DNA of 63,387 nt, counting the filler, from Asterionella formosa (Eukaryota), in NCBI GenBank assembly GCA_002256025.1. It is 3 parts of 3 records of this genome, joined end to end, with 100 filler letters (N's around TTAATTAATTAA, not from the genome) between each part and the next. Parts side by side here need not be neighbours in the genome. Positions count along the whole stretch, not along the records: positions 30,748 to 61,366 come from NKIB01000844.1; 2 more parts are not named here. One strand, written 5' to 3'. The position numbers and the translations under genes are program-made. Of this stretch, positions 4,900 to 61,520 are shown one piece after another. The notes below the pieces were generated by a model that worked only from the letters and a program-made list of their open reading frames with translations, had not been told where the DNA came from and searched no databases. Within the stretch, counting starts at the first letter, position 1, and the number at the start of each line of letters is the position of its first letter.

Positions 4900-6065
4900 A
4901 TCGTTGAGCATTGCATGTCGGCGTAGTGAGTCGAAATTAACGATGAGTACCAGTAGCTGTCAAAGATTGAATTCGTAAAATCGTTTATTTAGAGCTGTTT
5001 CATATTTTAACATTCAATGCTTGTCGCCATAGTACTAGTGAGTCGAAATTGAGATGTGCCGCAATGGCCTTCTCCGTTTTGGAGCAGCTACAAATAGTCT
5101 ACCGCAATAACTTTAGTAAGCACAATAAAGAAACGAATGAAGGAATGAGTAGCTGACAACAATTGAATTCGTAAATTCGTTAAGAAACAGCTGTTGCATA
5201 TTTTAATATTCAATGCATGTCATTGTAGTGAGTCGAAATTGAGATGTGCCGCAATGGCCGTCTCAATTTCGGAGCAGCTAGCAATAGTCTGAAGCGACAA
5301 CTTTAGCAAGTACAATATAGAAAAAGAATCAAACGATGAGTGCCAGTAGCTGTCAAAGATTGAATTTGCTAATTCGTTTGGGAACAGCTGTTGCATATTT
5401 TATCATTAAATACATGTCGCCATAGTGAGTCAAAATTGAGATGTTGTGCCGCAATGGCATTCTCTGTTTTGGAGCAGCTGCAAATAGTCTGCAGCGATAA
5501 CCCTAGAGAGTAAAATATAGAAAAAAATAAGCAAAAGATTAGTAGCTGTCAATGATTGAACTCGTTGATTTGTTTAGAAACAGCTGTTGCATATTCTGCC
5601 ATTCAATGCATGTCGCCGTAGCACGAGTGAGTCGAAATTGAGATGTGCCACAATTACCGTCTCCTCTTCGGAACGGCTACAAATAGTCTTCAGCGATAAC
5701 TCTAGCAATTACAATGTATAAAGAGAACCAAAGGATGAGTAGCTGTCAACGATTGAATTCGTAAATTCGTTTAGGAACAGCTGTTGCATATTTCAACATT
5801 CAGTGCATGTCGCCGTAGTGAGTTGAGATTGAGATGTGCTGTAATGTCCTTCTCCGGTTTGGAGCAGATAGCAATATTCTGAAGCGATAACTTTAGCAAG
5901 TACAATATAGAAAAAGAAGGAAAGGATGAGTAGCTGACAACAATTTAATTCATAAATTCGTTAAGAGACAGCTGTTGCATATTTTAACATTTATTGTATG
6001 TCACCATAGTGAGTCAAAATTTAGATGTGGCTGCCGCAATGGCATTCTCCTTTTCTGATAGGCTA
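4900..6065. repeat. Diverged tandem array 1, ~190-200 bp unit, ~6 copies
   Basis: Anchor gtgagtcgaaattgagatgtg (variants) recurs at ~4926, 5038, 5228, 5425, 5627, 5818, 6009, with shared ggagcagcta, gagtagctgtcaa and cagctgttgcatatt blocks. Confidence 0.95.
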
Positions 6066-6419
6066 GAATACATCTACATTAATAACTGTATTATAAACAA
6101 GTTGGTTGTAAAGGCAAGGGCCAAGGAAATGAGGACTATCAACTTCATTGAATTCAACCACTTCATAACCTGTATTTTTCGCAATATTTCGCATTTTTTC
6201 TGCACACCACCATTCAATAGACTCCAAAAATATTTGCTGATGTCTGATTTGACCAATAAAGAAACTCTTAGAAATTTAGTAGATCGATGCAATTTGGTAG
6301 AGAATAATAGCTTTGAGTTTGGTGCATCCCTGGTGCTCATGTACTAACTATCATCACGGCATACTAGCGCATCCTACTATGGTAGTAAATCAAAAATGAG
6401 AAGTGCCACAATTGCCATC

Positions 6420-7545
6420 TACACATCCTGATGCCTCTTTTGATCAAAATATTTTTGGTATGAGTATATCGACATTTGCCTTGACGGCATTGATCTCGTG
6501 TACATCAAATACTATGCTGAAAAGAAATCGGCTTTAAATTCTTGGTGGAGAATGATGGTTTGGAATTTCCGTTGCTACTGCACTGCCTGGTCATGCAGCA
6601 GTCCACAGCAAGCAGCGAAATCTTACACATCCTGATGAAAAATTTGATCAATATATATTCGTTCTAAGAATATCGACATTTGCCATGACGACATTGATCT
6701 CGTGTACATCAAATACTACGCTGGATAGAGGAAAGCAGTCTTAAATTGGTTGAGAAAGATGGTTTGGAATTTTTTTCAACAGCACTGGCTGATGATCAGT
6801 CCACAGCAAGCACAGAGTATTTTCAAATCATCCTGATGACAAATTTGATCAATATATGTTTGTTCTGATAATATCGATATTCGAAATGAGTGCACTGATC
6901 TCGTGTACATCTAATACTATGCTGGATAAAATCGGCTCCATATTCTTGGTGGAGAAAGGTGGTTTGCAATTTTTGTTGCCACAGCACTGATGATCAGTCC
7001 ACAAGCACAGAAAATTTACATATCCTGATGACCAATTTGATATATATTTTTCTTTCTGAGAATATCGACATTGTCCATGACAACATTGATCTCGTGTACA
7101 TCGAATACTATGATGGACAGAAAGCAGCCTTAAATTAGCTGAGAAAAATGGTTTGCAATACTGGTCATGCAGCAGTACGCAGCAAGCACCGATATTTTAC
7201 ACATCCTGATGAACAATTTGATCAATATATGTTGGTTCTTAGTAGTATTTACAAAATTTACACATCCTGATACTTTCATTGATCAATATATGTTCGTTCT
7301 GAGCATATCAACATTCGAAATGACGGCAGTGATTTCTTGTAAATCAAATACTATGCTAGAAAGAAATCGGCCTTAAATTGGTTGAGAAGGGTTGTTTGGA
7401 ATTTTTGTTGCTTCTGCACTAATGATCAGGCCACAAGCACCGAAAATTTACACACCATCCTGATGACAGATTTGATCAATATATGTTTGTTCTTAGCATT
7501 TCGACATTCGAAATAACGGCATTGATCTCGTGTACATCGAATTCG
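6420..7545. repeat. Diverged tandem array 2, ~180-205 bp unit, ~6 copies plus a partial
   Basis: Anchor catcctgatga..tttgatcaatatat..attgatctcgtgtacatc recurs at ~6421, 6626, 6828, 7019, 7199 (partial), 7261, 7455. Confidence 0.95.
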
Positions 7546-8299
7546 ATCAATACTACAAGTAAGCATAGACTGCGCCGGCTTTTTCTGAAGTGCAATGTAC
7601 AAAAATTTAGTACAAAATGAATGTCGACAAGGAGGACCATCTGCGCCAGTTTTCTTAATTAAAAGCAGCTGCTGGAATGAAAGGAACAAAATATCACATT
7701 CATGGTAAAATGAAATTTTTGTGATTGCTATTGTTGTCGTCTTTGTCGTCTTTTCTGCTATCATGGTTGTGTTCTCGTTGTCGTTATCGCTGTCCCTGTT
7801 GTTTCTGCTGTCATTTTTCTTGTTCTTATTCTATTGTTTCATTTTGGCTACTGTGGCTGTATAATCTTCTCTTCCTTGGTATTCTTTGCCCTGCGTTTGA
7901 ACTTGAACATGCATTGTTTGATATGGAATGTAAAAAGGTCTTGTTTGTTAATAACCAGCCATCATCTGACTCTGTCAATCTTGGCTGTTCTTCTCTTCCA
8001 GATAACAAGGAATCTGTTGTGGGCGAGTTCCTCTGAAAGAAACAGGCAGGCATTTTTTGTTTCTCCTTTTCATCACAGAAAGGATGCATCTGAAAGATCG
8101 AAAAATATATGGTTGCTATTAATATATTGGGAAAAGGAAACAGGTCTTGTGATACATTGTTGTTGTTCTTTTTTGTTGCTCTGCACCGTCGTTTTCTTCG
8201 TCTTGTCTTCAAAACTATGCATGTTTGATTGTTGTTGAAGTTCCTTTACCACCATTTAGTTTTTCCTCGTGCTTATGCCGTTTGGAATTGGAAAAGTGG

Positions 8300-9595
8300 T
8301 CAGTCATGAACTTACTCTGCGAACCTTGTTCTTTTTCTACAGACAACCAATCTGTTTTTGGCAGGGCAGGGTTGAACCTTGGTGGGAACAATGAAATGCG
8401 TCGTGCTCTGTGTCAGGAAGGCTATCCTGTGTCAGGCAGACTATCAATCTTTTGTAATTCGCATTGTTGAATGAATTCTTCTGGTCAAATGGGAAAATCA
8501 TACTATACATGGTAAGCAAGTGCAACGTTTTCTTGCCTTCTGCTGATATTGTTTGCTGTTGCTTGCTGTGGATCTCCTCTCCTATTCTACTTCGTCTTTG
8601 TTCGGAAATGTTAGCGCATGCATTGCTTTTTTGTCATGAATTAGATGAAGGGCTTGATTGTGTACATGTTATTTGTTGATCACGAACTTACTCTGCAAAC
8701 GCTGTTCTTTGTCTACAGACAATCAATCTGTTGAGCGAGAGATTCTTTGGGAATCAGGCGGTATGGTAAGCACAACGAAAACGATGCCTTAGTAACAATT
8801 GTTTGTTCATGAACTCACTCTTCGATTGTTGGCCATTGGGGAACATGGTAAAGAGCAAAACATAACCGAAAGCATGGCTTTGCAACTTTTGTTTTCTCAT
8901 CAACTCACTCTGAAAATGTTGCCCTCTTTCTAAAACAGAAAATCAATCTGAGCAATGAGAATGAGCAGTCGGCTCATTTGATATGAATTCATCTACCGGT
9001 AGTAGGTAACAGGGACTCCTGCAAGTATCTCATGAGTAGCCAAGCAATCTTGCAATTATTAGTTACAGCATCCAGGCAGCTGCAAGAATGAACATGCATT
9101 GCTTGTCGTATTGGTTTAAGAATTGCGTTCTATAGAAAGTATCAATATAAACTATATAGCGAAGCGATTAATTTGATTGATTTTGTGATTGTAGAATTAA
9201 ATTGAAATGTTGATTGGTTACACATACTACTTATTTGTTTGATTAGCGTATATATTTGTTTAACCTTCTTAAGGAATTAATGTGATCAAAGTAAAGATAA
9301 AATGGGAGCAAACAAACAGAATTAATGGTAGTCAGAGTGAAGAATAGTATTTGTGAACGGAAATGTTGCGAATTGTCGAGAAAAGTAGCGTATTATAGAG
9401 AATATTAATGAACAAATTTTTCTTTGTGTCGCCAGAAAATATTGTCAGTTGGCCCCAAAAATTATGTGGGTTTCTAAAATAATTGTGGAAGTTGTCGAAA
9501 CTATTTTAGTTCACTCCTTTCATATATATTGTATGATGCATCATATTTTCTATGTGATGTCATATCCTGCTTAAATTATGTGCGAGAGCGATGGG
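8300..9595 (-). repeat. Dispersed repeat (probable end of a non-autonomous element) with internal ~130-bp repeated cassettes; further copies at 25.76-26.11 kb (direct) and 26.19-26.90 kb (inverted)
   Basis: 9421-9483 ttggccccaaaaattatgtgggtttctaaaataatt is the reverse complement of 26203-26240; similarity continues to ~8720/26900; 8540-8845 matches 25760-26110 directly. Confidence 0.9.
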
Positions 9596-25759: not shown

Positions 25760-26900
25760 ATTTGTTGATATTTTTTGCTGTTGTTGTGATCTTCTCTCAT
25801 ATTCTCCTTTGTCTTCTTTCGGAATCGTTAGCGCATGCATTACTTATTTGTCATGAAGTAGAAGAAGGGCTTGCTTGTCGTCTTCTTACCTGTCATTCAT
25901 ATACTTACTCTGCAAATGCTGTTCTTTATCTACAGCCAATCAATTTGTTGAGCGAAGATATTGCTGGGAATCAAGAAACAAGGTATGCAAAAAGAAAATG
26001 ATGCCTTGCTTGTGTAACAATTCTTTGTTCATAAACCCACTCTGCAAACATTGTTCCCTGATTGCAGACAATCAATTTGATGAGGGCTGGGCTGGCCATT
26101 GGGGAACATCATCTACAACGCCGACTACTGGTACAGCCGCCTGAAAAAATGTTAAGTATATAGCTACATATATAATTTAAGGGTGTGACATCGCTCACAT
26201 AAAAATTATTTTAGAAACCCACATAATTTTTGGGGCCAACAGACAATATTTTCTGGCGACAAGAAGAAAAATTTGTTCAGGAATATCTCTATAATACGCT
26301 ACTTTTCTCTACAATTCGCAACATTTCCGTTCAGAAATATTCTTCACTCTGACTACCATTAACTTTGTTTGTTCGCTCCAATCAACGTTTCAATTTAATT
26401 CTACGATCGCAAAATCAATCAAATTAATCGCTTCGCTATATAGTTTATATTGATACTTTCTATAGAATGTGATTCTCAAACCAATACAATAAGCAATGGA
26501 TGTTCATTCTTGCAGCTAGATAATGTAACTAATCGCAAGATTGCTTGGCTACTCATACTTGCAGGAGTCCCTCTTACTACTACCGGTAGATCAATTCATA
26601 GCAAATGAGCCGGCTGCTCATTCTCATTGCTCAGATTGATTGTCTGTTGTAGAAAGAGGGCAACATTTGCAGAGTGAGTTGACGAGAAAACAAAAGTTGC
26701 GAAGCCATGCTTTCGGTTATGTTGTGCTCCTTACCATGTTCCCCAATGTCCAACCCGGCCCTCATCAAATTGATTGTCTGCAACCAGTGAACAACGGTCG
26801 CAGAGTGAGTTCATGGACAAACAATTGTTACAAAGGCATCATTTTCGTTGTGCTTACCATGCCGCCTGATTCCAAACAAATCCCTTGCTCAACAGATTGA
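25760..26900. repeat. Two oppositely oriented partial copies of the 8.3-9.6 kb repeat, forming a local imperfect fold-back
   Basis: 26070-26110 atcaatttgatgagggc..cattggggaacat is the approximate reverse complement of 26737-26775 atgttccccaatg..gccctcatcaaattgat. Confidence 0.85.
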
Positions 26901-28599
26901 TTGATGATTTGGACATCATACATCTGGTACCTGGTACCACTCGTTGATTACCGGTACATTTTCAAATATTTGCTGAGCCGCCGGGTCGTATATAAGAAAA
27001 TTAATCGTCGGTACATATACATACAGTGATGCACAATGTCTATATATATATTTAGCTATTTCAAAAAGGAATCTATGTACGTACGCGCAAATTTCCACTG
27101 ATTTGAATATTTCAAACGGAATCATGTCATTCAAAAATAGCTCCTATAAATTCTTAGTTCCAGGGAATTTCGGCAACCCTAAGCAATCTTTTAATTTTTG
27201 TCTTAGGGTTGAAATGCAGGAACCTTAAGCAAAATGACTGCAACTTGCAGGTACCAGGGTACCTATTCATTAGCTGAGGTCAACGCACTCAGCATGCATC
27301 ACGTTGCCATTCCAGACATATTCACAATACATGTATGTTATCCATATATTTGTATCTTTAGAATTCACATGAAGTAAAATTGATGTAAACGAATAAGAGA
27401 ATTCATATTGGATGCTGACAAAATCGATGATAAGGATGATTGTTGATATGCTTCATGCATCCAGTTGCCGACAACCACATCGCTTCGATTTTCTCCATCA
27501 ATTCATACCCGATAGCACTCCAAAGATTTGCAGTCGATAACACACACTAATTTGAATAAATATTTAGTTGAGCATTTCAAATTCAATATTAAATGATTTG
27601 TTCCATACCTGTTTTGTGCTCATTAGGGTTGGTTGTTGCTTGCATCATGAATCATGTCGTGATATTTCTCGAGATCCATTTCACTCCGTTTTTCTCAATC
27701 AAATAAGGGCAGATTGCAATCAAACAATTTGTTGTGAATTTGTCTTTCGCAATGATTTATCCTCTAAAAAGATTTATCCTGAATTCTTAAAATATTTAGT
27801 TGTAACATCAACTAGTCCTGCCTTGGAAATAACTGTATGATTGTGAACCATAACATGAAACCACGACAAGTAATTTTGTTCAGTATATTAGTAAATATTA
27901 TTTACGTGAAGTGCAAAACCATAAACTGTAGCATGAATTACTAAGACGACACCACTAATATCCTTACTAGTTCTATTTCACAAAGGAAGATGCATGCTGT
28001 AAATGAATTAGCCTCAAGAGCAGGACTTAGTTGAACTTTGATATGAATTATTTGAAACATCGACTAATTCAGTCTCAAGTTCAAAGTTTTTTGTGAAATC
28101 TTCACATGAAACCGTGAAAGTAACCTTTTTTATGGGAAGAGTAGCATTAATTCATGTGAAGTACAGTACCACATAATTAACACTCCTACGTAGAACAAAT
28201 TTCGAGAAGTGGTGTATTTCACGGCTTAGATGTGGTACAGTACCTTACTGATTTTTATATGTAGTTTGTGCATCAAGTAATATTGAAAACTACATACAGC
28301 AGCGTAGATTAAATATTACCTATAGACAGGAACCATGAGCATACATGTTGGCATACTCCGGTATATATTTGGCGTTGAGCAAAATCATGTCTACAGACAG
28401 CGATGTTGATATACCTGGTAGTACAAACGTTCAAATATCATTTTTGTTTGTTTAAAATGGAACTCCATCAATCTGGCACCGATTCCAATTTACGGTTGCG
28501 GCCCCACAGTTACATATCGCGAGGTCTGTTTTTTCCCAAAATAATTTTATGATGTAATTCAATCTACACAGTACGTACAACTAAATAAAATAGTTAAAG

Positions 28600-30360: not shown

Positions 30361-30532
30361 AGTGACCATCACGTAAATAAGCCTAGTTGATTTTGAATGG
30401 ATCACATGAATTAGTTGAATACATCAAAATGCTTACTTGAATATATCTATATATTATCTTAATACATCACGTTAATTATTTGATCAGAGTATCATGCATG
30501 CATTCCTGATCATCACTATATTACGTGATCAC

Positions 30533-30647
30533 CTTCACATAATTATTTGAAATACTTCACATAATTATTTGAAATACTTCACATAATTATTTGAAATACT
30601 TCACATAATTATTTGAAATACTTCACATAATTATTTGAAATACTTCA
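30533..30647. repeat. Perfect 22-bp minisatellite (cttcacataattatttgaaata) x~5, running into the assembly gap
   Basis: Directly visible; probably the subterminal repeat of the adjacent transposon. Confidence 0.95.
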
Positions 30648-30747
30648 NNNNNNNNNNNNNNNNNNNNNNNNNNNNNNNNNNNNNNNNNNNNTTAATTAAT
30701 TAANNNNNNNNNNNNNNNNNNNNNNNNNNNNNNNNNNNNNNNNNNNN
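30648..30747. other. Artificial 100-bp contig spacer N44-TTAATTAATTAA-N44 (same spacer at 61367-61466)
   Basis: Identical six-frame-stop linker embedded in Ns twice. Confidence 0.95.
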
Positions 30748-30874
30748 ATCTAGCAGGAAGGCTAGAAGCAGAGACAAGAGAGAAAGTGAGTGGTACTAGG
30801 TAGTACTACGATCACGTAAGAGTCTACGTGAAGAGAGACCCAACCCGCGGGAAGGAGTACGGACCATTTCAACA
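30748..30874 (+). mobile_element. 3' part of a Copia LTR, same family as the element at 59.6 kb
   Basis: 127 bp matching 59888-60014 with 3 substitutions seen; ends ...catttcaaca. Confidence 0.95.
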
Positions 30875-31076
30875 CACCCAGCCACATTCTCAAAACGGTG
30901 ACGATGGAGCACGGTGCATAAAATGAGCAAGAGGGGACCTTACTATATTACAGTAGATGTGTTGAAATTACCCTCGCAGTAGACTCAAAACATCATTACC
31001 TGTAATCTGGTTGACAATTTGCCCCCGTATTTGGCATACTGTCTCGATAATGCATACAAATGCCCATCGAACACCT

Positions 31077-42620: not shown

Positions 42621-43042
42621 TTTGGTCAAGGACTTTTTATAAAGATGTTGTTGTTGATGATGTTGATGATGGGAAGAAATAATCACGAGGGGGAGGGATT
42701 TGGTTTTTTGTATTCTTTTGCTGGCTAAAAGAACATATTTTCTTAGCTCTATCATGAATTAAACCTAGCTACGGTATGTGGTTGGGTACCAGGTACCGTA
42801 CCTGGTACCAGGTTCCCAGCCACAGAAATAAATGATATGGCATACCGGCACTTGTACCTGGGTACCAGGTACCAGGCACTGGTAACGGTATTCATTTCTT
42901 AATGATGTTTGAACATGATACCGGTTTGTATAAGATGACATCCAATGCTGAATTCATCAATCTACGATCCATGCATGCATACCGGTGCCTGTATGCATAA
43001 CTTTGCTCTTTAGATTAGGACGATAGCAAAATCTTGACGGAA

Positions 43043-44317
43043 ATGAAGAAATGGAGAATTCGGAAAGATATCATTGGTGTCATCGTCGCAGCAAACCTGA
43101 CCATGTCATTGGGCGAACGAGCATACCCGCTTGGTTGCTCGCAGCGTGATCCATCTTACTACAACTACGACGATTTCATATTCCCGCCTTCTGAAAGCAT
43201 CGTAAGATCCTCTGATTCTTATCTGCTACTTCGGAGACTGGGCTCTGGCAAATTCAGCGATGTATTTGAAGCCGTTGACGTGGATATGGAGAGGAAGCTT
43301 CCCACGACGCAGCTCAACCATCAGGTTGACCCGAGAGCGCTGGTGGTTCTCAAGTGCTTAAAACCAGTTTCGGAACGCAAGATAAAACGAGAGATTCTAG
43401 TATTGACGCACTGCTCCGACTTGCCAAATCTAGCAAGATTGCTTGGACTTGTTGTTCCATACTCGGATCCTTTAAAATCAAACAAATCCATCCCGGCCAT
43501 GCCTTCCTTGGTACTTGAACATGCTGGAGTGAAGTCGCAGTGGCTTTGTCATGGTTCTGCAGTGGATCGAAAAAACAAGGATGAACAAACGTCTTCGCCC
43601 TATTTGTCAGAGTATGAAATACAGTATTACCTTTGCCATTTGTTAGTGGCACTAGATGCACTCCACTCTTGTGGTATTATGCACCGTGATGTAAAACCAC
43701 GGAATGTGCTCATTAATCGACGCAATCTACAGCACCCTCAGGATTTGGGCGAGCCATCCCCACTCATGTTGATTGACTTGGGGTTGGCGGATTTCTTTCT
43801 TCCGAATACACGCTACAATGTCAGAGTCGCATCAAGACATTATAAATCTCCTGAATTACTAATCGGATTGGAGTATTATGATTATTCCATTGACATGTGG
43901 GGTGTAGGCTGTATCCTGGCTGGTTTGCTGCTGAGGAAGGAACCTTTTTTTCGGGGTATGGATAACTTGGAGCAGCTGGGAAAGATTATAGGGGTTTTGG
44001 GCACTTCTGACCTGTTAAGTTACATGACCAAATACAAGGTGCAACTCACACCTGAGTTGCGTAAAGTGATGGCGAAATATATTGTTCGTGGAGGGAAAAA
44101 ACAATCTTGGGTGTCCTTGGTACAAGAAAGTTGTCCTATGCCAAGTAAGCTTGGATTGGATCTGTTGGATCAGCTGCTTGTGTACAACCCTGACGAACGG
44201 CTTACGGCTAAGCAAGCATTAGAACATCCATTCTTTGAGCCTGTTCGGGAACGAGTCAAGGGAGAAGTTCGACAGAGAGCGATAGCGAAAAAAGCAAGGA
44301 TACAATCGTATGATTAG
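43043..44317 (+). CDS. Casein kinase II alpha-like Ser/Thr kinase (divergent)
   Basis: LGSGKFSDVFEA, LKPVSERKIKREI, IMHRDVKPRNVL, IDLGLADF, YNVRVASRHYKSPELL, YDYSIDMWGVGC, KEPFFRG.DN.EQL. Confidence 0.92.
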   Translation: MKKWRIRKDIIGVIVAANLTMSLGERAYPLGCSQRDPSYYNYDDFIFPPSESIVRSSDSYLLLRRLGSGKFSDVFEAVDVDMERKLPTTQLNHQVDPRALVVLKCLKPVSERKIKREILVLTHCSDLPNLARLLGLVVPYSDPLKSNKSIPAMPSLVLEHAGVKSQWLCHGSAVDRKNKDEQTSSPYLSEYEIQYYLCHLLVALDALHSCGIMHRDVKPRNVLINRRNLQHPQDLGEPSPLMLIDLGLADFFLPNTRYNVRVASRHYKSPELLIGLEYYDYSIDMWGVGCILAGLLLRKEPFFRGMDNLEQLGKIIGVLGTSDLLSYMTKYKVQLTPELRKVMAKYIVRGGKKQSWVSLVQESCPMPSKLGLDLLDQLLVYNPDERLTAKQALEHPFFEPVRERVKGEVRQRAIAKKARIQSYD

Positions 44318-44734: not shown

Positions 44735-46348
44735 CTACATCATTAGTATCTTTTCGAACGATAACTTGCAGTCACAATAATCGTCCAAATAGTCATCCAC
44801 GAATCCTATGTTTGCGAATGGGACCTCGTGTCTTTCAGCGGCACATATCCATGCTTCCTTCACAACCCTTTGCTTCACCATTTCGTCGCCGTCACTTCGT
44901 GGCTCAAGACCAGGAAATCGATTCACTTCTATTAGCTGTGGTCGAAAGTTTCCGTCCACAAGAAAGTCCAGACCTAGAATCTTGGGGATGCCAAGTTTCC
45001 CTAGTTTGGATCGATACTCCCGTTTGGGTTGTTTTGTTGCAAAATCGTTGTAGCAGGTCATCAAAGTCTTGATTGATTGTCGGATTTCATTCCAAAATGA
45101 CTCGTAGGGCCAGTCATTCTTCTCAAAGATTGATTGAAGGTATTTTAAGTCTCGCTGGCGCATGTTATTCTCCCGCCCTGAATTTGTCATATACATTCTT
45201 TCATCACTAGACCCTTCGTCAAATGGCATAGACGCTAGCTTGACAAGACCCAAGCTCGACAAATAAGAGGTCGGTGAAGCATTCTCGTCAAGGAAAAAAT
45301 ACACATATACGCGAATGGAAAACTTGCGTCCGTCAATGAGAAGAGTAGGGTTCACTATGCGTTGACATAGGACATCTTCGGAATAAGAGTTACAAAGAAT
45401 GTCATTTCCACTCACAATACGATTACCGTGAGAACCGTAAGCAGCTCTTTCCTTTACAATCCATTTCTTTGTGACTCGATCGGCGTGAGACTCTTGAAAA
45501 GTTGACATTTCTCTGGAAAGAACGTAGCCTTGAGGCCAAAACGAAGTAGCCAAGGGTGACCTTGACAGGAGCTCATGAAGATGCACCTTATCGTCAAGAT
45601 GCAACAAAAAGGGGTCGTCGAATGCACATTGGTTAAGAGCAGCAAATTCCAGAACATGGTAAGGTCGATGAGCAGCGACATCGTTTGTCGCCAAGAAATG
45701 AACCCAAGAGTACAACGGCGAGAGCGATCGGCCACTTTTCAACGCCCCTATGACAGCGTCGCTTTCTCCGTTGAGAAAGAGTAAGCATCCAAGCATATCC
45801 GCCGCTTCACTTTCGGTCCCATATTCCTGGCAGTGCGATGTGAGGGAATCAATGGCATCATTCATGTCCAGCAAACGAAGGGAACATGTGGCAGCCCCAA
45901 TACAGGCTTTCTCAGTTGGAATTTCTCTGTACTGTTCTCGAGCTTGTTGGTAGCGCATCAGACGCTGCAGAGCATACGCATTACCAAGCTGCACATCTTG
46001 CAGCGTCAGGTGGTCGAGAAAGTTCCTGAAGTTTAGGCAGGCCGAATAAGAACTAAGGGAGTCTAAGTCACGCCCCACCCTCGTTAGAGAAGACGCTTGA
46101 AATGCGAGGCAAAGCGATCTAATCCTCGGTGGGAGTTCTTGAGAGAGGATATCATTCCACTGGTCGCAAGCCAAGTAGGCCATTGTAATGTTAGCTTTTG
46201 AGTCGTTCGACGAAACCATGGCCTTCTGAACTTTGCTTAGGATATCCGCTGATACAGTTTTCCCACCATTCTGAATCGAAAGCCCTGCGACCAGGAAGAT
46301 GAGACAATGTATTGTCACAGCCGCCGTGATTATGGTCTTGACTTTCAT
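44735..46348 (-). CDS. Tubulin-tyrosine-ligase-like ATP-grasp protein with N-terminal signal peptide and helical (TPR-like) region
   Basis: WIVKE...GSHGN, LCQRIV.PTLLIDGRKFSIRVYV, MYMTN, ILGLDFLVD..PQLIEVNRFP (ExN); hydrophobic leader. Confidence 0.85.
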   Translation of the reverse strand: MKVKTIITAAVTIHCLIFLVAGLSIQNGGKTVSADILSKVQKAMVSSNDSKANITMAYLACDQWNDILSQELPPRIRSLCLAFQASSLTRVGRDLDSLSSYSACLNFRNFLDHLTLQDVQLGNAYALQRLMRYQQAREQYREIPTEKACIGAATCSLRLLDMNDAIDSLTSHCQEYGTESEAADMLGCLLFLNGESDAVIGALKSGRSLSPLYSWVHFLATNDVAAHRPYHVLEFAALNQCAFDDPFLLHLDDKVHLHELLSRSPLATSFWPQGYVLSREMSTFQESHADRVTKKWIVKERAAYGSHGNRIVSGNDILCNSYSEDVLCQRIVNPTLLIDGRKFSIRVYVYFFLDENASPTSYLSSLGLVKLASMPFDEGSSDERMYMTNSGRENNMRQRDLKYLQSIFEKNDWPYESFWNEIRQSIKTLMTCYNDFATKQPKREYRSKLGKLGIPKILGLDFLVDGNFRPQLIEVNRFPGLEPRSDGDEMVKQRVVKEAWICAAERHEVPFANIGFVDDYLDDYCDCKLSFEKILMM

Positions 46349-46693
46349 TTTACCTCGTAGCGACAATTGAGTCAGCGTCAACAAGATTAGAAGCTGATGA
46401 TGGCGGTGGGGTCAGAGGGATATGACTTTCATCTGCTGCTTGCTTAATGCTCCCTCTGTTCCGGTGTAGTTGCAACCAAACGTTGGGTTTCACTATTTCT
46501 CATTGACACTCTATGTACCGGTATAGTAATAGCTGATATTATATGCAGGTCAGTATTACTCTGGCCGAAGAAAATCAATAGCCCTAAAGAACGATCCCCA
46601 CGTATCACTATTCGGAATTAGACTCGCTCATAACACTACCAGTTAATCCAACCGATGTAGGCGTCGCCTGCATCGTCTCGGTTAGGAAATGAA

Positions 46694-46895
46694 AATTGCT
46701 TAAGGCAATACACGCCCGAGGTGGTCTCTTGCCTGCGAGTATACATGTGTTCGAGGCTGAGTGGCGCGAGTAGGTTGACCGTACGAGTGGCGCCCCGGCG
46801 CTGCGAGAAGGTCACCCTACGAGTGCCATCCCAGCCAAGTACACATGTATACGAGAAGGCAAGTAGCCGCCGAGAAGGGTATTGTTGAGGCAATT
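46694..46895 (+). other. Long imperfect rod-like hairpin (structured ssDNA or ncRNA candidate)
   Basis: Arms pair in near-constant register around 46795/46796, e.g. gtatacatgtgt(46739-50)/acacatgtatac(46841-52), cttgcct/aggcaag, ggcaatac/gtattgtt, aattgc/gcaatt. Confidence 0.9.
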
Positions 46896-48037
46896 CCAGC
46901 TCAACCTATCGTCGCGTCATTCGCTTACCTCCTGCCCACAAATAAAGCATAAATGTCAATTTTAGCTTACTATTGCCCATCATATAAAATATATTTGGTT
47001 TATTTCCTATCTTCACATCGAAAATTGCAATAAGTCCGATATTGCCCATCATTAAAATGTGTATTGTATATTTCCTTTCTTCGCATTTTGGCAAGACAAC
47101 AGACGCCAATTGCCCCTCGGTTTTATAGCCCTGGGATTGCCGAAATCGGCAAGGGGTCTACTTAAGGAAACCATTTTATATACTATATATCTACATAAGA
47201 ACCAATGCATTTATCAATGACTACTCATTGAAGATGTGGTATTATGCCGTTGTTGATCGTATTTGTTGATTTGTATAGTCGTTGACAATGATGTCAGTAT
47301 TGCCGCCAAGCAATGCTTTTCTTGTACTAACGCGCTTTGCTACATTTCTACTACGAGTTCGTATCAGAAGCTATGTATATTCAGGTAGAGGGAGTCGATA
47401 GTGCCGAAGCAGCCTGGCGATTATACTCAATCAGAATGGATTGGAATGGAATGATGATCAGGGTTGTTTGGTGGGAGGAATGAGGACTGTGGGCGGAGGG
47501 AATGCAACTTGTGTCAGGCTCCCACAGCGATGTGCATGGTTACAACAAGCAGATCGTCTATGCTACATAACGATGCAGGTCAAGATTGGGTTCAGCATTT
47601 TCCCTTCTTATTTCGGTCGTTGATTGTGTGGTGATGGAAATTCAATTGCCTGTGTAAGTACTACAATGTCACAATGCATACATCTCCATTGAAACTCTTA
47701 TTTTTTACTTCATTTCTAACCCAAAACAATTTTTTCTATTTCTCATTTGACGCTACTTATTACATCGCATTTCATACTTTGGTTGCTCCAAACATCATGT
47801 TCAATTTTCATTGATGTTGCATGTTACAATCATTCTCGTGTGTTTACGCTTGTTGTACCATCTCCATGCATATTACCGTTATTCTGGTTGTCATGCTAAA
47901 ATCGGCAATTTTATTGCCGAAAAATTCGATGTGCCTAATATTGCCCTTAAATAAAAATTACTTAGAGCCTAAAAATTACTTAGAAGTACCCGAATGGCAA
48001 GGCGATAGCTGGAGCGGGAATTGCTTCTACAGAGGGC
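46876..48037. mobile_element. Putative non-autonomous element bounded by imperfect ~50-bp inverted repeats, with attgccc subterminal motifs
   Basis: 46885-46930 vs reverse complement of ~47983-48030, roughly 70% identical by eye (gcaattcc.gctc.a.ctatcg...cattcg..tac.tc). Confidence 0.45.
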
Positions 48038-51557: not shown

Positions 51558-52040
51558 TGTGATTGAAAATGGAGGGAAGGAATATTAATAAATAGGGAAT
51601 AGACTATTACCGATAGAATATCATTACATGGTTTTTATGGTGCCTGATGTTGTGGTCTGATGAGAGGGGCTCACAACATGATACACGGTCATGGCCTCAT
51701 GACAGGCAGATATGTCATAATACCGGTGCTTGGAATACCGGTACCAGTACCAGGTACTGTACACACGGAGTGAGTGAAATCATGAGTATTTTGCAGGCTT
51801 CAATTTTAAATGTATTTTCCGGGAAACATTCTTTACATTACAAAAATTGCACATACATTGAAATTACATATTACACCGTTATAATACAAATCACATTACC
51901 GTCTGCATCGTCAAAACTCACCTTACATGGCGAATATAATGATGCAACCGGCTTGCTGATCGAGAAGTAATTGTCAATTGTACTCGTTCATTCCCTTTTG
52001 CCCTGGCATCTCGTTTTAGAGGTCCATAATATCTGCGAAC

Positions 52041-52961
52041 ATGCGCTGTGTCTATACGTTGCTCGTTCTGATGGCCCATCACTGCGCCTCTGGCTTTGCG
52101 CCGAGAAAGTTAACCTCATCAGTTCTGTTTCGACAGAATTCGCTACCAACAAAACTCTTCGTCGAGCGTGTTTCGATCGAATATTGCACTGGTTGCCGAT
52201 GGATGCTTCGATCAGCATGGATGGCTCAAGAACTACTAACAACCTTTCAAGACGAACTGGGTTCGGTAACGTTAGTTCCCAGTAGAGTCAAACCCGGAGG
52301 CGTCTTCACCGTTCGCTGTAACAATCAAATTCTTTGGGACCGAAAAGAACAAGGAGGATTTCCAGAATCAAAGGAGCTAAAACAACGAGTCAGAGATTTA
52401 ATTGCACCCGAGCAGTTTCTTGGACATTCTGATTCGGATGGGCGACTAGTAGCAGCCGTCACGACGGCAAATGATTGTGAAGACTGTCCAACTCCGCCAA
52501 CTGCTGGTACTGCATTTGTTGACTATGTTGCCCCTGAACCGCATGTTGCCATCACCTATTGTACGGGATGTCGGTGGTTACTACGTTGTGCGTGGTTTGC
52601 TCAGGAAATGTTGACAACTTTTGATTCGGAACTGAACGCCGTTACATTAATTCCAAGTCGACCGTCTGACAGTGTCAAAGGAGGAACTTTTGTAAGTTTG
52701 AAGTTGTTTCGATTTATTCATGTCGCCCCCCAGCATATCTAATATATCATCAAAATTAAGAAGGTGCAATTGAATGGAGAATTACTGTGGGACAGAACAA
52801 GTGAGGGGAGATTCCCTGAAATCAAGGAATTAAAGCAACTGGTACGCAACAGAATTTCTCCTACTAGAGATCTTGGACACAGTGACAACAAAGGAGAAAC
52901 GCTTGTCGAAATGGATGACGACGAAGCTGATAGGATGCGTAAGTTCTTTGGTGTCATGTAG
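52041..52961 (+). CDS. Tandem two-domain SelW/Rdx-family (SelT/SelW/SelH) redox protein, plastid-type leader; intron 52692-52760
   Basis: Two copies of V.I.YCTGCRW.LR.AW.AQE.LTTF..VTL.PSR..GG.F.V..N..LWDR..G.FPE.KELKQ.VR..I.P..LGHSD; ASG-FAP leader; GTAAGT..TAAG intron restores the frame. Confidence 0.92.
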
Positions 52962-59605: not shown

Positions 59606-61366
59606 TGTCAAGAATATTAGCCTGAGTCACAAGGATTGTGGACTCGATTGTAATCGAACGAGTCGAATATTGCATTGCCACGTCAATCAGCTGTCTAAGA
59701 ACGAGATCAGAGATTGAAGATTTCTAAAGAAATGTTAAGTGGAAACTCGAAGAGAGTCTTAGAATGACTTTGCAGGAAGCAAAGATGCATGGAAAGGAAA
59801 CATTTAGTTTAGCTTAAAATTTAATTTGAGTTTTAGATTATCAACCGAGGAAACAGTGTGTTAATTGACAGCAAGATCAATTAGTCTATCTAGCTTGAAG
59901 GCTAGAAGCAGAGACAAGAGAGAAAGTAAGTGGTACTAGGTAGTACTACGATCACGTAAGAGTCTACGTGAAGAGAGACCCAACCCGCGGGAAGGAGTAC
60001 GGACCATTTCAACACGCTTTAAAGCGGATAGGTTTGAAAGGGTACTCAAGATGGGAATTGACGACGAATCGTCAGGAGTGCGGTTGCCAACATTTGATGG
60101 TACCGATGCCAAGTGGCATGTTTGGAAAGCGAAGTTTGTGGCCTATGCCTGCTACAAAGGTTTTGAAGGAATCCTAAGTGGAGATGAAGTATCACCAGGT
60201 GAGAGAGATTCAGCTGGAGTGAAGATTGTTCCGAGCGACAACAATGAGAAGCGTGCGAAACGAAATAATACGGTTGCCTATGCAAGTTTAATTATGGCAT
60301 GTCAGAGTGGACCATTTGGATACGTAAATGGTGCCAGAAGTGAAGAGTTCCCCAATGGAAATGCGAAGGAAGCGTGGGACAAGTTAGTGTCTACGTACGA
60401 GTCAAGTAATATGGCAAATGTGATTGCCTTGTCAGGTCAGTGGACAAAATGCACGATTAACGAGAATGAGAACCCCGACATTTGGTTTGTGGAGTTGGAT
60501 AGAATTCGAGAACGATTGAGTCGTACGAGCTCCGCAATTTCGGATGGTGCCTATGTGGCCCATGTTATCAACAACCTACCGGAAGTCTACAAGAGTTTGG
60601 TGGTTGGAAAATTTGGTCTCGCGAGCTCCGAGCTCACGATCCAAGAGGTCAAGAAGAATGTACGCGACTATTACGATTTGTATGTGCGTGACGAAACCAA
60701 GACGAATAAGAATGGCGAGCAGGCCTTCTTTTCAAAAAGCAAGTTTAAGGGAGACTGCAGGAAGTGTGGCAAGTATGGCCACAAGGCAGTTGATTGCCGA
60801 AGCAAGGGCAATACTACAGAAAAGAGAGAATTAACTCCCGAGCAACGAAATAAGAGAAAGAATGTGAAGTGTTATAATTGCCAGAAGATGGGGCACTATG
60901 CCAGTGAGTGCAACAATCAAAAAAATGCACCAATCAAACAGAAGGGAGAAGACGCCAATACTACTACGCAAGGAATGTTCGTGGTGACGTGTATTGAGGC
61001 AAGGTACAATGAAGAGGTAAATTATACGTGCGTGCATAAGGACCGTTGGCTACTAGATAGTGGCGCTACGGTACATATATGCAATGATGAGCGCATCATG
61101 GAGGACAAGCGCGCAGTGCGTGAAACTGTTCTTGTGGGAAACGGCGCAGCAATTGTTGCGACCGTATCAGGCACGGTGACCCTTACGACGACAGACAAAG
61201 GAAAAGTGTTGAAACTCACCAATGTGCTCTATGCACCGGAGTTCAAGCAGAACATTATCAGTATTTCGAGAATTATTGACAAGGGAAATAAAGTTATGTT
61301 TGACGATGATAAGATGACGATCAGAAACAACAACGGATTTTTGATTTGTAAACGTGATGAAACGAG
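59606..61366 (+). mobile_element. Ty1/Copia retrotransposon: 5' LTR (~59606-60014) plus gag-protease, truncated by the contig end
   Basis: LTR 3' end defined by the second copy at 30748-30874; 5' start (tgtcaagaat) is inferred; ORF follows 36 bp after the LTR. Confidence 0.9.
60051..61366 (+). CDS. Copia gag-pol polyprotein, partial (gag, two CCHC zinc knuckles, protease)
   Basis: LPTFDG..WHVWKAKF, NLPEVYKSLV, CRKCGKYGHKAVDC, CYNCQKMGHYASEC, WLLDSGATVHIC, LTNVLYAPEFKQNIISI; uninterrupted. Confidence 0.95.
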
Positions 61367-61520
61367 NNNNNNNNNNNNNNNNNNNNNNNNNNNNNNNNNN
61401 NNNNNNNNNNTTAATTAATTAANNNNNNNNNNNNNNNNNNNNNNNNNNNNNNNNNNNNNNNNNNNNGGTTTCTGTTCACACAATAATTCTAATTTTTCTA
61501 ACCGTGCAACTTCACGTAGG

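Follow-up and report, generated by a model that had tools for sequence, protein, structure and literature searches.

Within intergenic DNA of the freshwater alga Asterionella formosa lies a rod-like hairpin of about 200 nt for which a first-pass annotation proposed three identities: the end or origin of an element mobilised as single-stranded DNA (ssDNA), a viroid-like RNA insert or a scaffold ncRNA. We asked what kind of sequence carries this structure and in which nucleic acid it is likely to fold. The window is a stretch of 63,387 nt from assembly GCA_002256025.1 (three parts joined by filler letters), numbered here along its whole length, and the features identified in it are collected in Table 1.

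A rod-like hairpin that folds better from one strand

Folding both strands and comparing them with shuffled sequences recovered the unbranched rod where it had been proposed, with 46694 pairing with 46895 in the two-strand layout of the minimum free energy (MFE) fold and a CCCCGG loop at 46793-46798. As RNA, 46647-46930 reaches an MFE of -134.5 kcal/mol on the + strand (z -8.56, 0 of 200 shuffles as good) and -112.6 kcal/mol on the - strand (z -4.72). As DNA, the rod itself reaches -50.7 kcal/mol (z -7.41) and -43.4 kcal/mol (z -5.30) on the + and - strands respectively, the + strand folding better in either nucleic acid. The + strand MFE of the rod contains nine G·U pairs, where about seven G·T pairs had been counted in the first-pass annotation, versus one possible C·A (binomial p 0.02). 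The hairpin had also been described as a CpG-rich island in AT-rich surroundings. It is GC-rich (56 % versus 38 % in the next 291 nt) but not CpG-enriched, 16 CpG being observed and 15.8 expected (ratio ~1.0). The second, smaller hairpin noted just 5′ of the rod is real as a fold (DNA z -3.78) but belongs to the flank, and other copies have unrelated sequence in its place.

Table 1 Features of the hairpin and the surrounding repeat unit in window coordinates
Feature	Position	Strand	Evidence or remark
Small 10-bp hairpin in flank	46653..46675	+	Fold; not part of repeat family
Terminal palindrome (rod hairpin) of repeat	46694..46896	+	Folds; start common to copies; contig loose ends
AATTGCTT, first 8 nt of hairpin, identical to 48019-48026	46694..46701	+	Sequence
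CGAG block 1, 5′ half, faces 46871-46874	46717..46720	+	Layout; invariant in 3/3 full copies
CGAG block 2, 5′ half, faces 46852-46855	46736..46739	+	Layout; G·A single mismatch precedes
CGAG block 3, 5′ half, faces 46836-46839 (CAAG in window copy)	46752..46755	+	Layout
CGAG block 4, 5′ half, faces 46820-46823	46767..46770	+	Layout; copy comparison
CGAG block 5, 5′ half, faces 46804-46807	46784..46787	+	Layout; copy comparison
3′-arm partners of blocks 1-5, with starts at 46804, 46820, 46836, 46852 and 46871	46804..46874	+	Layout
Subterminal inverted repeat, directly inboard of palindrome	46897..46935	+	Complement at ~47981-48018
Non-coding body of repeat	46897..47187	+	Common to L001 and L003
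Second repeated block B	47188..48018	+	Contigs; L001; last 16-35 nt = terminal inverted repeat
AATTGCTT, second copy; repeat ends after it	48019..48026	+	Sequence comparison

Periodic CGAG blocks along the rod

The first-pass annotation placed CGAG opposite CGAG at five positions 15-19 nt apart, and the layout contains four CGAG/CGAG blocks and one CGAG/CAAG block at those positions, spaced by 19, 16, 15 and 17 nt on the 5′ arm and by 16, 16, 16 and 19 nt on the 3′ arm. We also counted the expected three occurrences of CGAGAAGG on the 3′ arm. CGAG is found nine times and CTCG not at all within 200 nt, with 0.45 expected from the window (Poisson P ~1.5e-9), and none of 20,000 randomly decayed palindromes carried four or more tandem G·A blocks, the maximum of three being reached once.

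Other copies of the sequence, described below, sharpen this pattern. Position 46837 is A in the window copy and G in metagenome loci L001 and L003 and in nearly all contig depth of four sequencing runs, and CAAG at 46836 is thus a decay of the window copy. The family majority letters restore CGAG here and add one pair (46760). The partner of block 4 is TGAG in L003, which is still of the Y-GA-R type with a G·U closing pair, and a sixth block suspected at the base of the hairpin is present in other copies, where a G at 46702 creates U·G, G·A and A·G pairs.

The kink-turn RNA motif consists of a three-nucleotide bulge and, immediately after it, tandem G·A pairs. A kink-turn reading of the blocks was rejected because the G·A pairs of the rod lie in 2x2 symmetric loops with C-G and G-C as closing pairs; the irregularities adjoining them are single mismatches, with a C-G pair in between. 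The same four-base unit of CGAG facing CGAG occurs in single-stranded DNA in hairpins of the AUTS2 promoter repeat, where it forms C:G, sheared G:A, A:G and G:C by NMR (PMC10085684). In the hairpins described in that source the blocks are consecutive in a short repeat tract, whereas in the window hairpin single blocks stand 15-19 nt apart between Watson-Crick helices, in what appears to be a mobile-element terminus. Our search for literature joining tandem or sheared G·A pairs with transposons, single-stranded DNA and hairpins found none.

The hairpin is the end of a high-copy repeat

We looked for further copies in contigs of four public runs placed on a 2.4-kb stretch, which include a DNA run (X2) and RNA libraries from three studies (X15, X9 and X17). 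A pattern scan of metagenome contigs matched three loci (L001, L002 and L003), while two patterns gave 0 matches in genome contigs, three patterns gave 0 in viral contigs, and blastn at word size 7 returned only the self match within the window. A single X2 contig of depth 86 spans 45500-46599 and unique DNA stops near 46599. From ~46634 the summed depth rises several hundred-fold, as contig depth and not as copy number, and in X2 it amounts to 20,704 to 82,221 over 46634-46876, spread over many short contigs (2,432 records on the 2.4-kb stretch). Contig pieces with the hairpin number many hundreds, so it does not belong to one locus. Contig loose ends before it cluster at 46692-46697, the sequence shared by the window, L001, L003 and L002 starts at AATTGC or ATTAC, and the window, L003 and L002 have left flanks that bear no relation to one another. 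The depth rise, the clustered boundaries and the common start together show the hairpin to be the palindromic end of a dispersed non-coding repeat that occurs in high copy in this freshwater alga, the first base of the repeat lying at ~46694.

In all three copies that extend far enough (window, L001 and L003) the hairpin runs on into at least 290 nt of further shared repeat. This continuity, together with the many hundreds of contig pieces, speaks against the proposed viroid-like insert and against a stand-alone scaffold ncRNA gene. Neither identity gains from Rfam, where the whole window had 0 matches at gathering score and there were only chance-level scores (E >=1.3) at E<=10 or E<=5 in the repeat region, L001 and L003. 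A viroid-like or retrozyme reading likewise gained no support from the ribozyme search, in which the window, L001 and L003 yielded no self-cleaving ribozyme (hammerhead, twister or HDV-like).

Copies differ at 3-5 of 196 hairpin positions and at 22-42 of 291 positions in the repeat DNA next to it (Fisher p 0.025 and 2e-7), making the hairpin 3-9 times better conserved than that DNA. The difference holds despite the 16 CpG of the hairpin. Two transitions affect paired sites, each of them C>T and each producing a G·U pair on the + strand. Compensatory changes number 0 across 74 pairs, a count that is uninformative rather than negative with three near-identical copies. Contigs also contain variants in which the tip is deleted (joints 46737>46838, 46741>46845 and 46754>46797). 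The earlier suspicion that this is not simply a decaying palindrome is borne out, since the better conservation, G·A blocks that are not random and the asymmetry of the strands together point to a selected, strand-specific single-stranded structure.

Layout of the repeat unit

On the + strand the window copy consists of the 203-nt palindrome, a subterminal inverted repeat of ~30 nt, a body of ~1.1 kb and a terminal inverted repeat ending at 48018. In the window copy the two inverted repeats agree at 32 of 42 aligned positions, GCAATT among them, and at 28 of 34 in L001, where they lengthen the hairpin stem by ~31 bp. The 8-mer that opens the hairpin varies between copies (AATTGCTT, AATTGCTG twice and ATTACTG), and the 66 nt that follow it are invariant but for one base. 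Identity to the window copy, hairpin included, is 94 % over 495 nt in L001 and 91.5 % in L003. The body contains a direct repeat (46971-47018 and 47040-47086), and past 47187 the window copy diverges from both loci.

Beyond this point lies block B. In L001 the DNA directly upstream of the hairpin matches 47616-48018 of B with 91 % identity, giving in that locus a head-to-tail B-to-hairpin junction with a single AATTGCT. The same adjacency recurs in predicted proteins P0002-P0005, retrieved by a protein search with a spurious ORF through the hairpin; the five weak matches are rearranged and frameshifted and bear on adjacency only. The window copy is the one copy with both ends, and it has AATTGCTT at both junctions. 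The boundary in the window copy, in L003 and at two contig loose ends carries A runs on the + strand (T runs on the - strand) that vary; T runs next to the hairpin end are absent in L002 and two others. Read on the - strand, the complete copy has T on either side; no empty site was encountered.

No long ORF or codon periodicity was found in the repeat, and the extra ~300 nt common to L001 and L003 have neither an ORF nor third-position bias (differences of 12, 8 and 5 by codon position). None of the 16 long ORFs scanned in the window has a transposase-like Pfam match or a RepHel.

Similarity to Helitron2/Helentron ends

In Helitron2 elements the 5′ ATIR stands 0-2 bp inside the end, and the terminal hairpin is immediately preceded by the 3′ ATIR (PMC3627910); HLE2 elements more generally are described as having TIRs, a stem-loop and a T-T target, with the stem-loop occupying the 3′ end in canonical HLE2 and the 5′ end in HLE2-reverse and the Phytophthora proto-Helentron (PMC11417382). 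Variable T strings occur at the boundaries of HINE/DINE-1 (PMC4067079). HLE2 insertions fall between two T residues and leave no target-site duplication. Joined ends or tandem insertions are reported for Helitrons (PMC5148889), and the head-to-tail junction of L001 fits these. As far as these sources describe HLE2, the window repeat shares with it an inverted repeat at the very end, which in HLE2 lies 0-4 nt from one terminus, and whose partner is subterminal and adjoins the terminal stem-loop, the end of B (to 48018) complementing 46897-46935 beside the palindrome. It also shares abundant non-coding derivatives and head-to-tail junctions, and some of its boundaries carry A/T runs. A single-stranded intermediate would be expected from this likeness.

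The dimensions differ. HLE2 palindromes of 5-10 bp lie within ~8-60 bp of the end and ATIRs measure 8-15 bp (PMC3627910, PMC4067079), whereas the window palindrome, at 203 nt with a stem of ~100 bp, is about ten-fold larger, although it occupies the same position and reaches the very end, and the inverted repeats measure 18-31 bp. Periodic G·A blocks are not among the HLE2 features set out in these four sources (PMC3627910, PMC4067079, PMC11417382, PMC5148889), nor is an 8-nt repeat such as AATTGCTT at both junctions, and the window lacks a detectable RepHel. A second hairpin of the Helitron2 type was not predicted at the other end (47890-48018, either strand, z -0.45); the fold of that segment contains only a small hairpin ~100 nt inside. 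The canonical HLE2 orientation would put the hairpin 3′-terminal on the - strand of the window, which is the worse-folding strand.

Of the three identities first proposed, the terminal palindrome and the HLE2-like end architecture agree best with an element that is mobilised as ssDNA and has its end or origin here. We tentatively favour, at somewhat less than even confidence, the reading of the hairpin as the terminal palindrome of a non-autonomous HLE2-like rolling-circle element that folds in single-stranded DNA in this eukaryotic alga; a strand-selective single-stranded DNA hairpin is the best reading of the structure itself. Such an element would move through a single-stranded stage in which the + strand folds, its CGAG/CGAG blocks (C:G, sheared G:A, A:G, G:C) and G·T pairs stabilising the hairpin. 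The complementary strand would have C·T/T·C and A·C mismatches at the same positions, so that a good hairpin would form from one strand only and the 100-bp palindrome would be less prone to cruciform extrusion as a duplex. The spacing of ~16 nt (~1.5 helical turns) could present periodic two-fold symmetric sites to a protein of the element, and cleavage and joining would probably take place at the break between ...GCGGG and AATTGC... at the hairpin foot.

The bacterial recombination hairpins of integron attC sites and IS200/IS605 ends are imperfect palindromes of which a single strand adopts the recognised form, with non-canonical or extrahelical positions setting the strand choice. The window hairpin resembles them in being an imperfect palindrome of which one strand folds better; they differ in being prokaryotic, with much shorter stems, other enzymes and no periodic G·A blocks. 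The CGAG blocks might both select the strand and form a periodic docking array while a eukaryotic rolling-circle or hairpin-primed element is in its single-stranded transposition stage, a proposal that we regard as speculative.

Alternative explanations

The hairpin could instead be selected in a + strand transcript, as the end of a retroelement RNA, an hpRNA or small-RNA precursor, or a repeat-borne protein-binding scaffold, with the regular non-Watson-Crick blocks holding any perfect helix to <=12 bp. The very strong fold of the + strand RNA is in keeping with this, as are the nine G·U pairs and exclusively C>T changes at paired sites, which are typical of RNA-level constraint. Hairpin-bearing contigs are also present in the three RNA libraries, and one, of 2,117 nt from a poly(A) library, carries a tip-deleted hairpin. 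These contigs show neither strand nor ends, however, and RNA libraries may contain DNA (uncovered stretches in their contigs are equally no evidence of silence). No poly(A) tail or reverse transcriptase was found in the repeat, which also lacks an Rfam family or ribozyme, and the combination of inverted repeat, terminal palindrome and junction at the hairpin foot is that of a DNA transposon. We consider a purely RNA-level origin unlikely, although an RNA-level role may exist beside the DNA hairpin.

Somewhat less probable still is a different DNA-level mechanism, either a small circle that site-specific recombination by a Crypton-like tyrosine recombinase would insert at an AATTGCT core, or a parvovirus-like ′rolling hairpin′ primed by the hairpin and nicked at its foot. 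The stretch 46694-48018 can be read as a circularly permuted unit bounded by the 8-mer AATTGCTT, the junction in L001 is closed with a single AATTGCT, and a variable 8-mer beside a near-invariant 66 nt is what a crossover or target-derived core would leave. In predicted proteins P0003-P0005, moreover, B appears to precede a hairpin of opposite orientation; however, these frameshifted translations can equally be read as the hairpin followed by an inverted B arm. Against such a mechanism, the window yielded neither a recombinase nor a Rep, no symmetric binding-site pair flanks the 8-mer, and only one copy has two ends.

A cut-and-paste foldback element or MITE, whose arms would be terminal inverted repeats and whose G·A pairs would be historical accidents fixed in a master copy, shares with the window repeat its abundance, non-coding nature, long inverted-repeat hairpin and the tip deletions typical of unstable palindromes, but is improbable given that the palindrome is not self-contained and forms one end of a longer unit, that no target duplication surrounds 46694-46896, that random decay does not produce five or six symmetric G·A blocks of identical sequence (0 of 20,000), and that the mismatches, far from random, follow an order and favour one strand, with nine G·U versus one C·A in a hairpin better conserved than its surroundings despite its CpG.

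Implications for mobile elements in algae

Genomes do not normally keep long palindromes stably, and little is understood of the structural signals that Helitron-like elements use. On the favoured reading of an HLE2-like ssDNA terminus, this repeat family may solve both the instability of a palindrome and its structural signalling by means of regular sheared G·A blocks and G·T pairs that leave the hairpin of one strand strong and that of the other weak. If the blocks do act as strand selector and docking array, the sequence alone would show which strand folds and where it is cut, and the hairpin would represent an undescribed giant asymmetric palindrome as a transposon terminus, possibly even of a new class of algal mobile element that is nicked at the foot of the hairpin and inserts beside look-alike AATTGCT sites. 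The case also counsels caution, in that what looks like a conspicuous ′structured RNA′ between algal genes can prove to be the end of a transposon. The family, once confirmed, would offer a test case for strand choice in eukaryotic single-strand transposition, for protein recognition of tandem G·A sites and for how a cell tolerates 200-bp palindromes at hundreds of sites in its genome.

A strand-asymmetric hairpin built on CGAG blocks

As RNA, the + strand of 46647-46930 folds to -134.5 kcal/mol (z -8.56), a value equalled by none of 200 dinucleotide shuffles, while the - strand folds less well (-112.6 kcal/mol, z -4.72), bearing out the strand-specific hairpin placed here by the first-pass annotation. 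Under DNA parameters, folding energies for the core (46694-46896) are -50.7 (z -7.41) for the + strand versus -43.4 (z -5.30) for the - strand. The two-strand layout is a single unbranched rod running from the 46694/46895 pair up to a CCCCGG loop, with five tandem G·A blocks at distances of 19, 16, 15 and 17 nt on the 5' arm and 16, 16, 16 and 19 nt on the 3' arm. These five blocks had been described from the sequence; the accompanying count of about seven further G·T pairs needs revision, since the minimum free energy fold has nine G·U pairs against at most one C·A opposition (9 vs 1, binomial p 0.02). CGAG occurs nine times and CTCG not once within the 200 nt of the hairpin (window-average expectation 0.45, Poisson P ~1.5e-9), and none of 20,000 simulated palindromes (40 random hits each) had at least four tandem G·A. 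The block, CGAG and G·U features are not due to chance. Facing CGAGs in DNA oligonucleotides form by NMR a 'CGAG block' with sheared G:A pairs (PMC10085684), and the CGAG-on-CGAG oppositions of the hairpin are the same unit.

Coordinates of the CGAG blocks (two-strand layout of the fold) and of selected genes in the window
Feature	Position	Strand	Remark
CGAG/CGAG block	46717/46871	+	C-G, G·A, A·G, G-C
CGAG/CGAG block	46736/46852	+	C-G, G·A, A·G, G-C
CGAG/CAAG block	46752/46836	+	CAAG on 3' arm
CGAG/CGAG block	46767/46820	+	C-G, G·A, A·G, G-C
CGAG/CGAG block	46784/46804	+	C-G, G·A, A·G, G-C
Protein kinase ORF	43019-44317		
Tubulin-tyrosine-ligase-like gene	44735-46411	-	
ORF with two Rdx-family domains	52020-52739	+	Pfam E 1.1e-45

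Genomic setting

The spacer that holds the hairpin is upstream of the tubulin-tyrosine-ligase-like gene. The intron-free long ORFs of the window are ordinary eukaryotic genes, further examples being a short-chain dehydrogenase and a methylmalonyl-CoA mutase; the Rdx family includes selenoproteins. Searches of the whole window found neither a tRNA nor, at gathering score, an Rfam family. Runs carrying the region are labelled as algae, freshwater or lake-water metagenomes.

Several other repeats were seen in the window. Inverted repeat blocks of 83-178 nt, 88-94% complementary, link 8571-9484 with 25788-26903 some 17 kb away (more internal inverted repeats lie within 25937-26903), and the two regions are probably opposite-orientation copies of another mobile element. 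Tandem repeats fill 4950-7570 (about 2.6 kb) at a period of ~190-204 nt, in several overlapping families 60-89% identical, and a 22-nt tandem array occupies 30491-30644. Two pairs of 44-N gaps share one layout at 30648-30747 and 61367-61466, the filler positions between joined records; a 128-nt repeat (30748-30875 and 59888-60015, 98% identity) adjoins one pair, and the gaps were probably left by assembly within copies of a single repeat. The sole other site in the window with five CGAG per 200 nt is 60441-60660.

The hairpin opens an abundant dispersed repeat

We compared 45500-47900 with Logan contigs of three public RNA libraries (X15, X9 and X17), in which DNA may be present, and one public DNA run (X2); such contigs give no strand, ends or expression level. 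In X2 a single contig of depth 86 spans 45500-46599 with zero differences and stops there. Summed depth is 20,704 from 46634, then 82,221 and 52,260 across the hairpin, and remains in the tens of thousands as far as 47900, figures which do not equal copy number and which we take only as hundreds of contig pieces versus one for unique DNA. The high depth is made up of many short contigs (2,432 records in X2, 649 in X17), whose 'before' loose ends cluster at 46692-46697 with varying letters upstream. Depth in X2 is ~200-295 over 46391-46633 versus 86 for the neighbouring gene, so this segment is itself present in a few copies. The X2 peak of the repeat (160,725 summed) falls in bin 47120-47200, which includes ATTGCCGAAATCGGCAA, a small perfect hairpin nested inside GCCCC...GGGG, and may be a module common to several repeat families.

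A pattern scan of metagenome contigs identified three loci. L001 and L003 match window 46694-47187 at 94% and 91.5% respectively over 495 nt, and L002 matches only the 5' arm because its contig ends there. The shared sequence starts at AATTGC in the window, L001 and L003 and at ATTAC in L002, while the left flanks of the window copy, L003 and L002 are mutually unrelated. It follows that a longer dispersed repeat begins with the hairpin, which makes up its first 203 nt. No second copy lies in the window, and the viral and prokaryotic genome collections scanned gave no match. GGTACC-type short repeats are abundant in the left flanks of L002 (1-170) and L003 (720-820, reverse strand), which suggests that these copies inserted into a different repeat family or that the element prefers certain targets.

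The first-pass annotation had proposed a selected single-stranded structure, such as the end or origin of an ssDNA-mobilised element, a viroid-like RNA insert or a scaffold ncRNA. Folds, chance tests and conservation uphold a non-random, selected structure; the RNA gene gives way, the hairpin being the terminus of an abundant dispersed repeat. An RNA-level function, to which the RNA fold and the contigs from RNA libraries might be referred, is unlikely.

Conservation among copies

Taking the window copy as reference for the three outside DNA copies, L001 differs at 5 of 196 hairpin positions and 22 of 291 in the adjoining repeat (Fisher p 0.025), and L003 at 3/196 and 42/291 (Fisher p 2e-7); between L001 and L003 the counts are 4/196 and 34/291. 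Despite its 16 CpGs the hairpin has fewer differences than the adjoining repeat and is the constrained part of it. Compared with the rest of the family, the window copy shows slight decay. G at 46837, found in nearly all contig depth of the four runs and in L001 and L003, converts CAAG to CGAG, and G at 46760 (most contig depth, L001 and L002, not L003) gives one more G-C pair. G at 46702 in all three outside copies sets up another unit, U·G, G·A, A·G, at the hairpin base, recovering the decayed sixth block suspected there. An extra loop C is present in L001 and L003, in about a quarter of the depth of X15, X17 and X2 and in nearly all of that of X9. C>T changes at 46820 in L003 (CGAG to TGAG) and at the paired 46835 in L001 are both accommodated as G·U on the + strand; a pair is broken in L001 by 46728 C>A. 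Compensatory changes number 0 in 74 pairs among three near-identical sequences, too alike to judge covariation. Tip-deleted hairpins have joints 46737>46838, 46741>46845, 46745>46845 and, in a poly(A)-library contig of 2,117 nt, 46754>46797; such deletions would be expected in a long palindrome where the facing CGAGs double as direct repeats.

Architecture of the element

On the + strand the window copy consists of the terminal palindrome, a subterminal inverted repeat, a ~1.1 kb non-coding body and a terminal inverted repeat; the repeat showed neither a long ORF nor codon periodicity. Its downstream segment B (47188-48018) ends ...GAGCGGG at 48018 and is followed at 48019-48026 by AATTGCTT, the same eight letters that open the hairpin at 46694-46701. 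The final 16-35 nt of B form an inverted repeat with 46897-46935, just inboard of the hairpin (identity 32/42 aligned positions in the window, 28/34 in L001). In L001 the DNA directly 5' of the hairpin matches B (window 47616-48025) at 91% identity, and the contiguous stem is ~31 bp longer, the extension having no G·A block. B also adjoins the hairpin, rearranged, in P0002-P0005, predicted proteins weakly matching a spurious ORF that spans the hairpin, three of which read as the opposite orientation. Among the copies the 8-mer varies more than any other part (AATTGCTT, AATTGCTG twice, ATTACTG), and the 66 nt after it are invariant except for one base. From one complete copy, we hypothesise that it is a cleavage or joining core or a target mimicking the element's own end. 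Site-specific circle integration or a rolling hairpin, DNA mechanisms to which such junctions might also belong, seem improbable.

The body has an internal direct repeat of ~48 nt (46971-47018/47040-47086, 83% identical). ATTGCC occurs at 46972, 47041, 47109, 47136, 47299, 47645, 47913 and 47940, and the word ATTGCC/GGCAAT, recurring in hairpin base, body and B, might be a protein-binding word of the element.

Possible relationship to Helitron-like elements

A strand-asymmetric, unusually well conserved palindrome ends an abundant non-coding repeat, with an inverted-repeat layout of the HLE2 (Helitron2/Helentron-type rolling-circle) kind. All classes taken together, the hairpin is very probably the terminal structure of a mobile repeat; we read it as a Helitron-like terminal stem-loop, not a novel RNA gene, and assign the element tentatively to the HLE2 type with a single-stranded DNA role. 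One ATIR of Helitron2 is 0-2 bp from one end and its partner directly precedes the terminal hairpin (PMC3627910), and the window copy likewise has an inverted repeat at one end and its partner beside the terminal palindrome. HLE2 elements have TIRs and a stem-loop, which is 5' in 'HLE2-reverse' and the Phytophthora proto-Helentron (PMC11417382). HINE/DINE-1 elements have boundary T strings of variable length and use TT as insertion target (PMC4067079). In the window copy, L003 and two loose contig ends, the hairpin borders a run of A on the + strand, equivalent to T on the - strand; L002 and two others lack such a run. Joined ends and tandem insertions are on record for Helitrons (PMC5148889), and the B-hairpin junction of L001 would be such a case.

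Compared with the HLE2 described in these papers, the palindrome is ~10x larger (supplement tables might show larger stem-loops), the inverted repeats are longer, no hairpin is predicted at the other end of the window copy, and both junctions carry the 8-nt repeat, a feature missing from the descriptions. No RepHel is known for the hairpin repeat, and a search of open-access texts turned up no transposon end described as having periodic G·A blocks.

The element would pass through single-stranded DNA and function with its + strand folded into the hairpin. For that strand, the CGAG blocks and G·T pairs would come at little cost, but on the complement they would turn into C·T/T·C and A·C, so that a strong hairpin would mark only one strand. 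Cruciform extrusion from the duplex would be disfavoured because both hairpins are needed. A plain foldback or MITE is very improbable. Should the element prove to be HLE2, the strand asymmetry would argue that the folded strand has its hairpin at the 5' end, not the canonical 3'. A 16-nt spacing (~1.5 helical turns) would set two-fold symmetric sites on alternating faces, possibly as a docking array. The hairpin carries an unusual, testable structural device.
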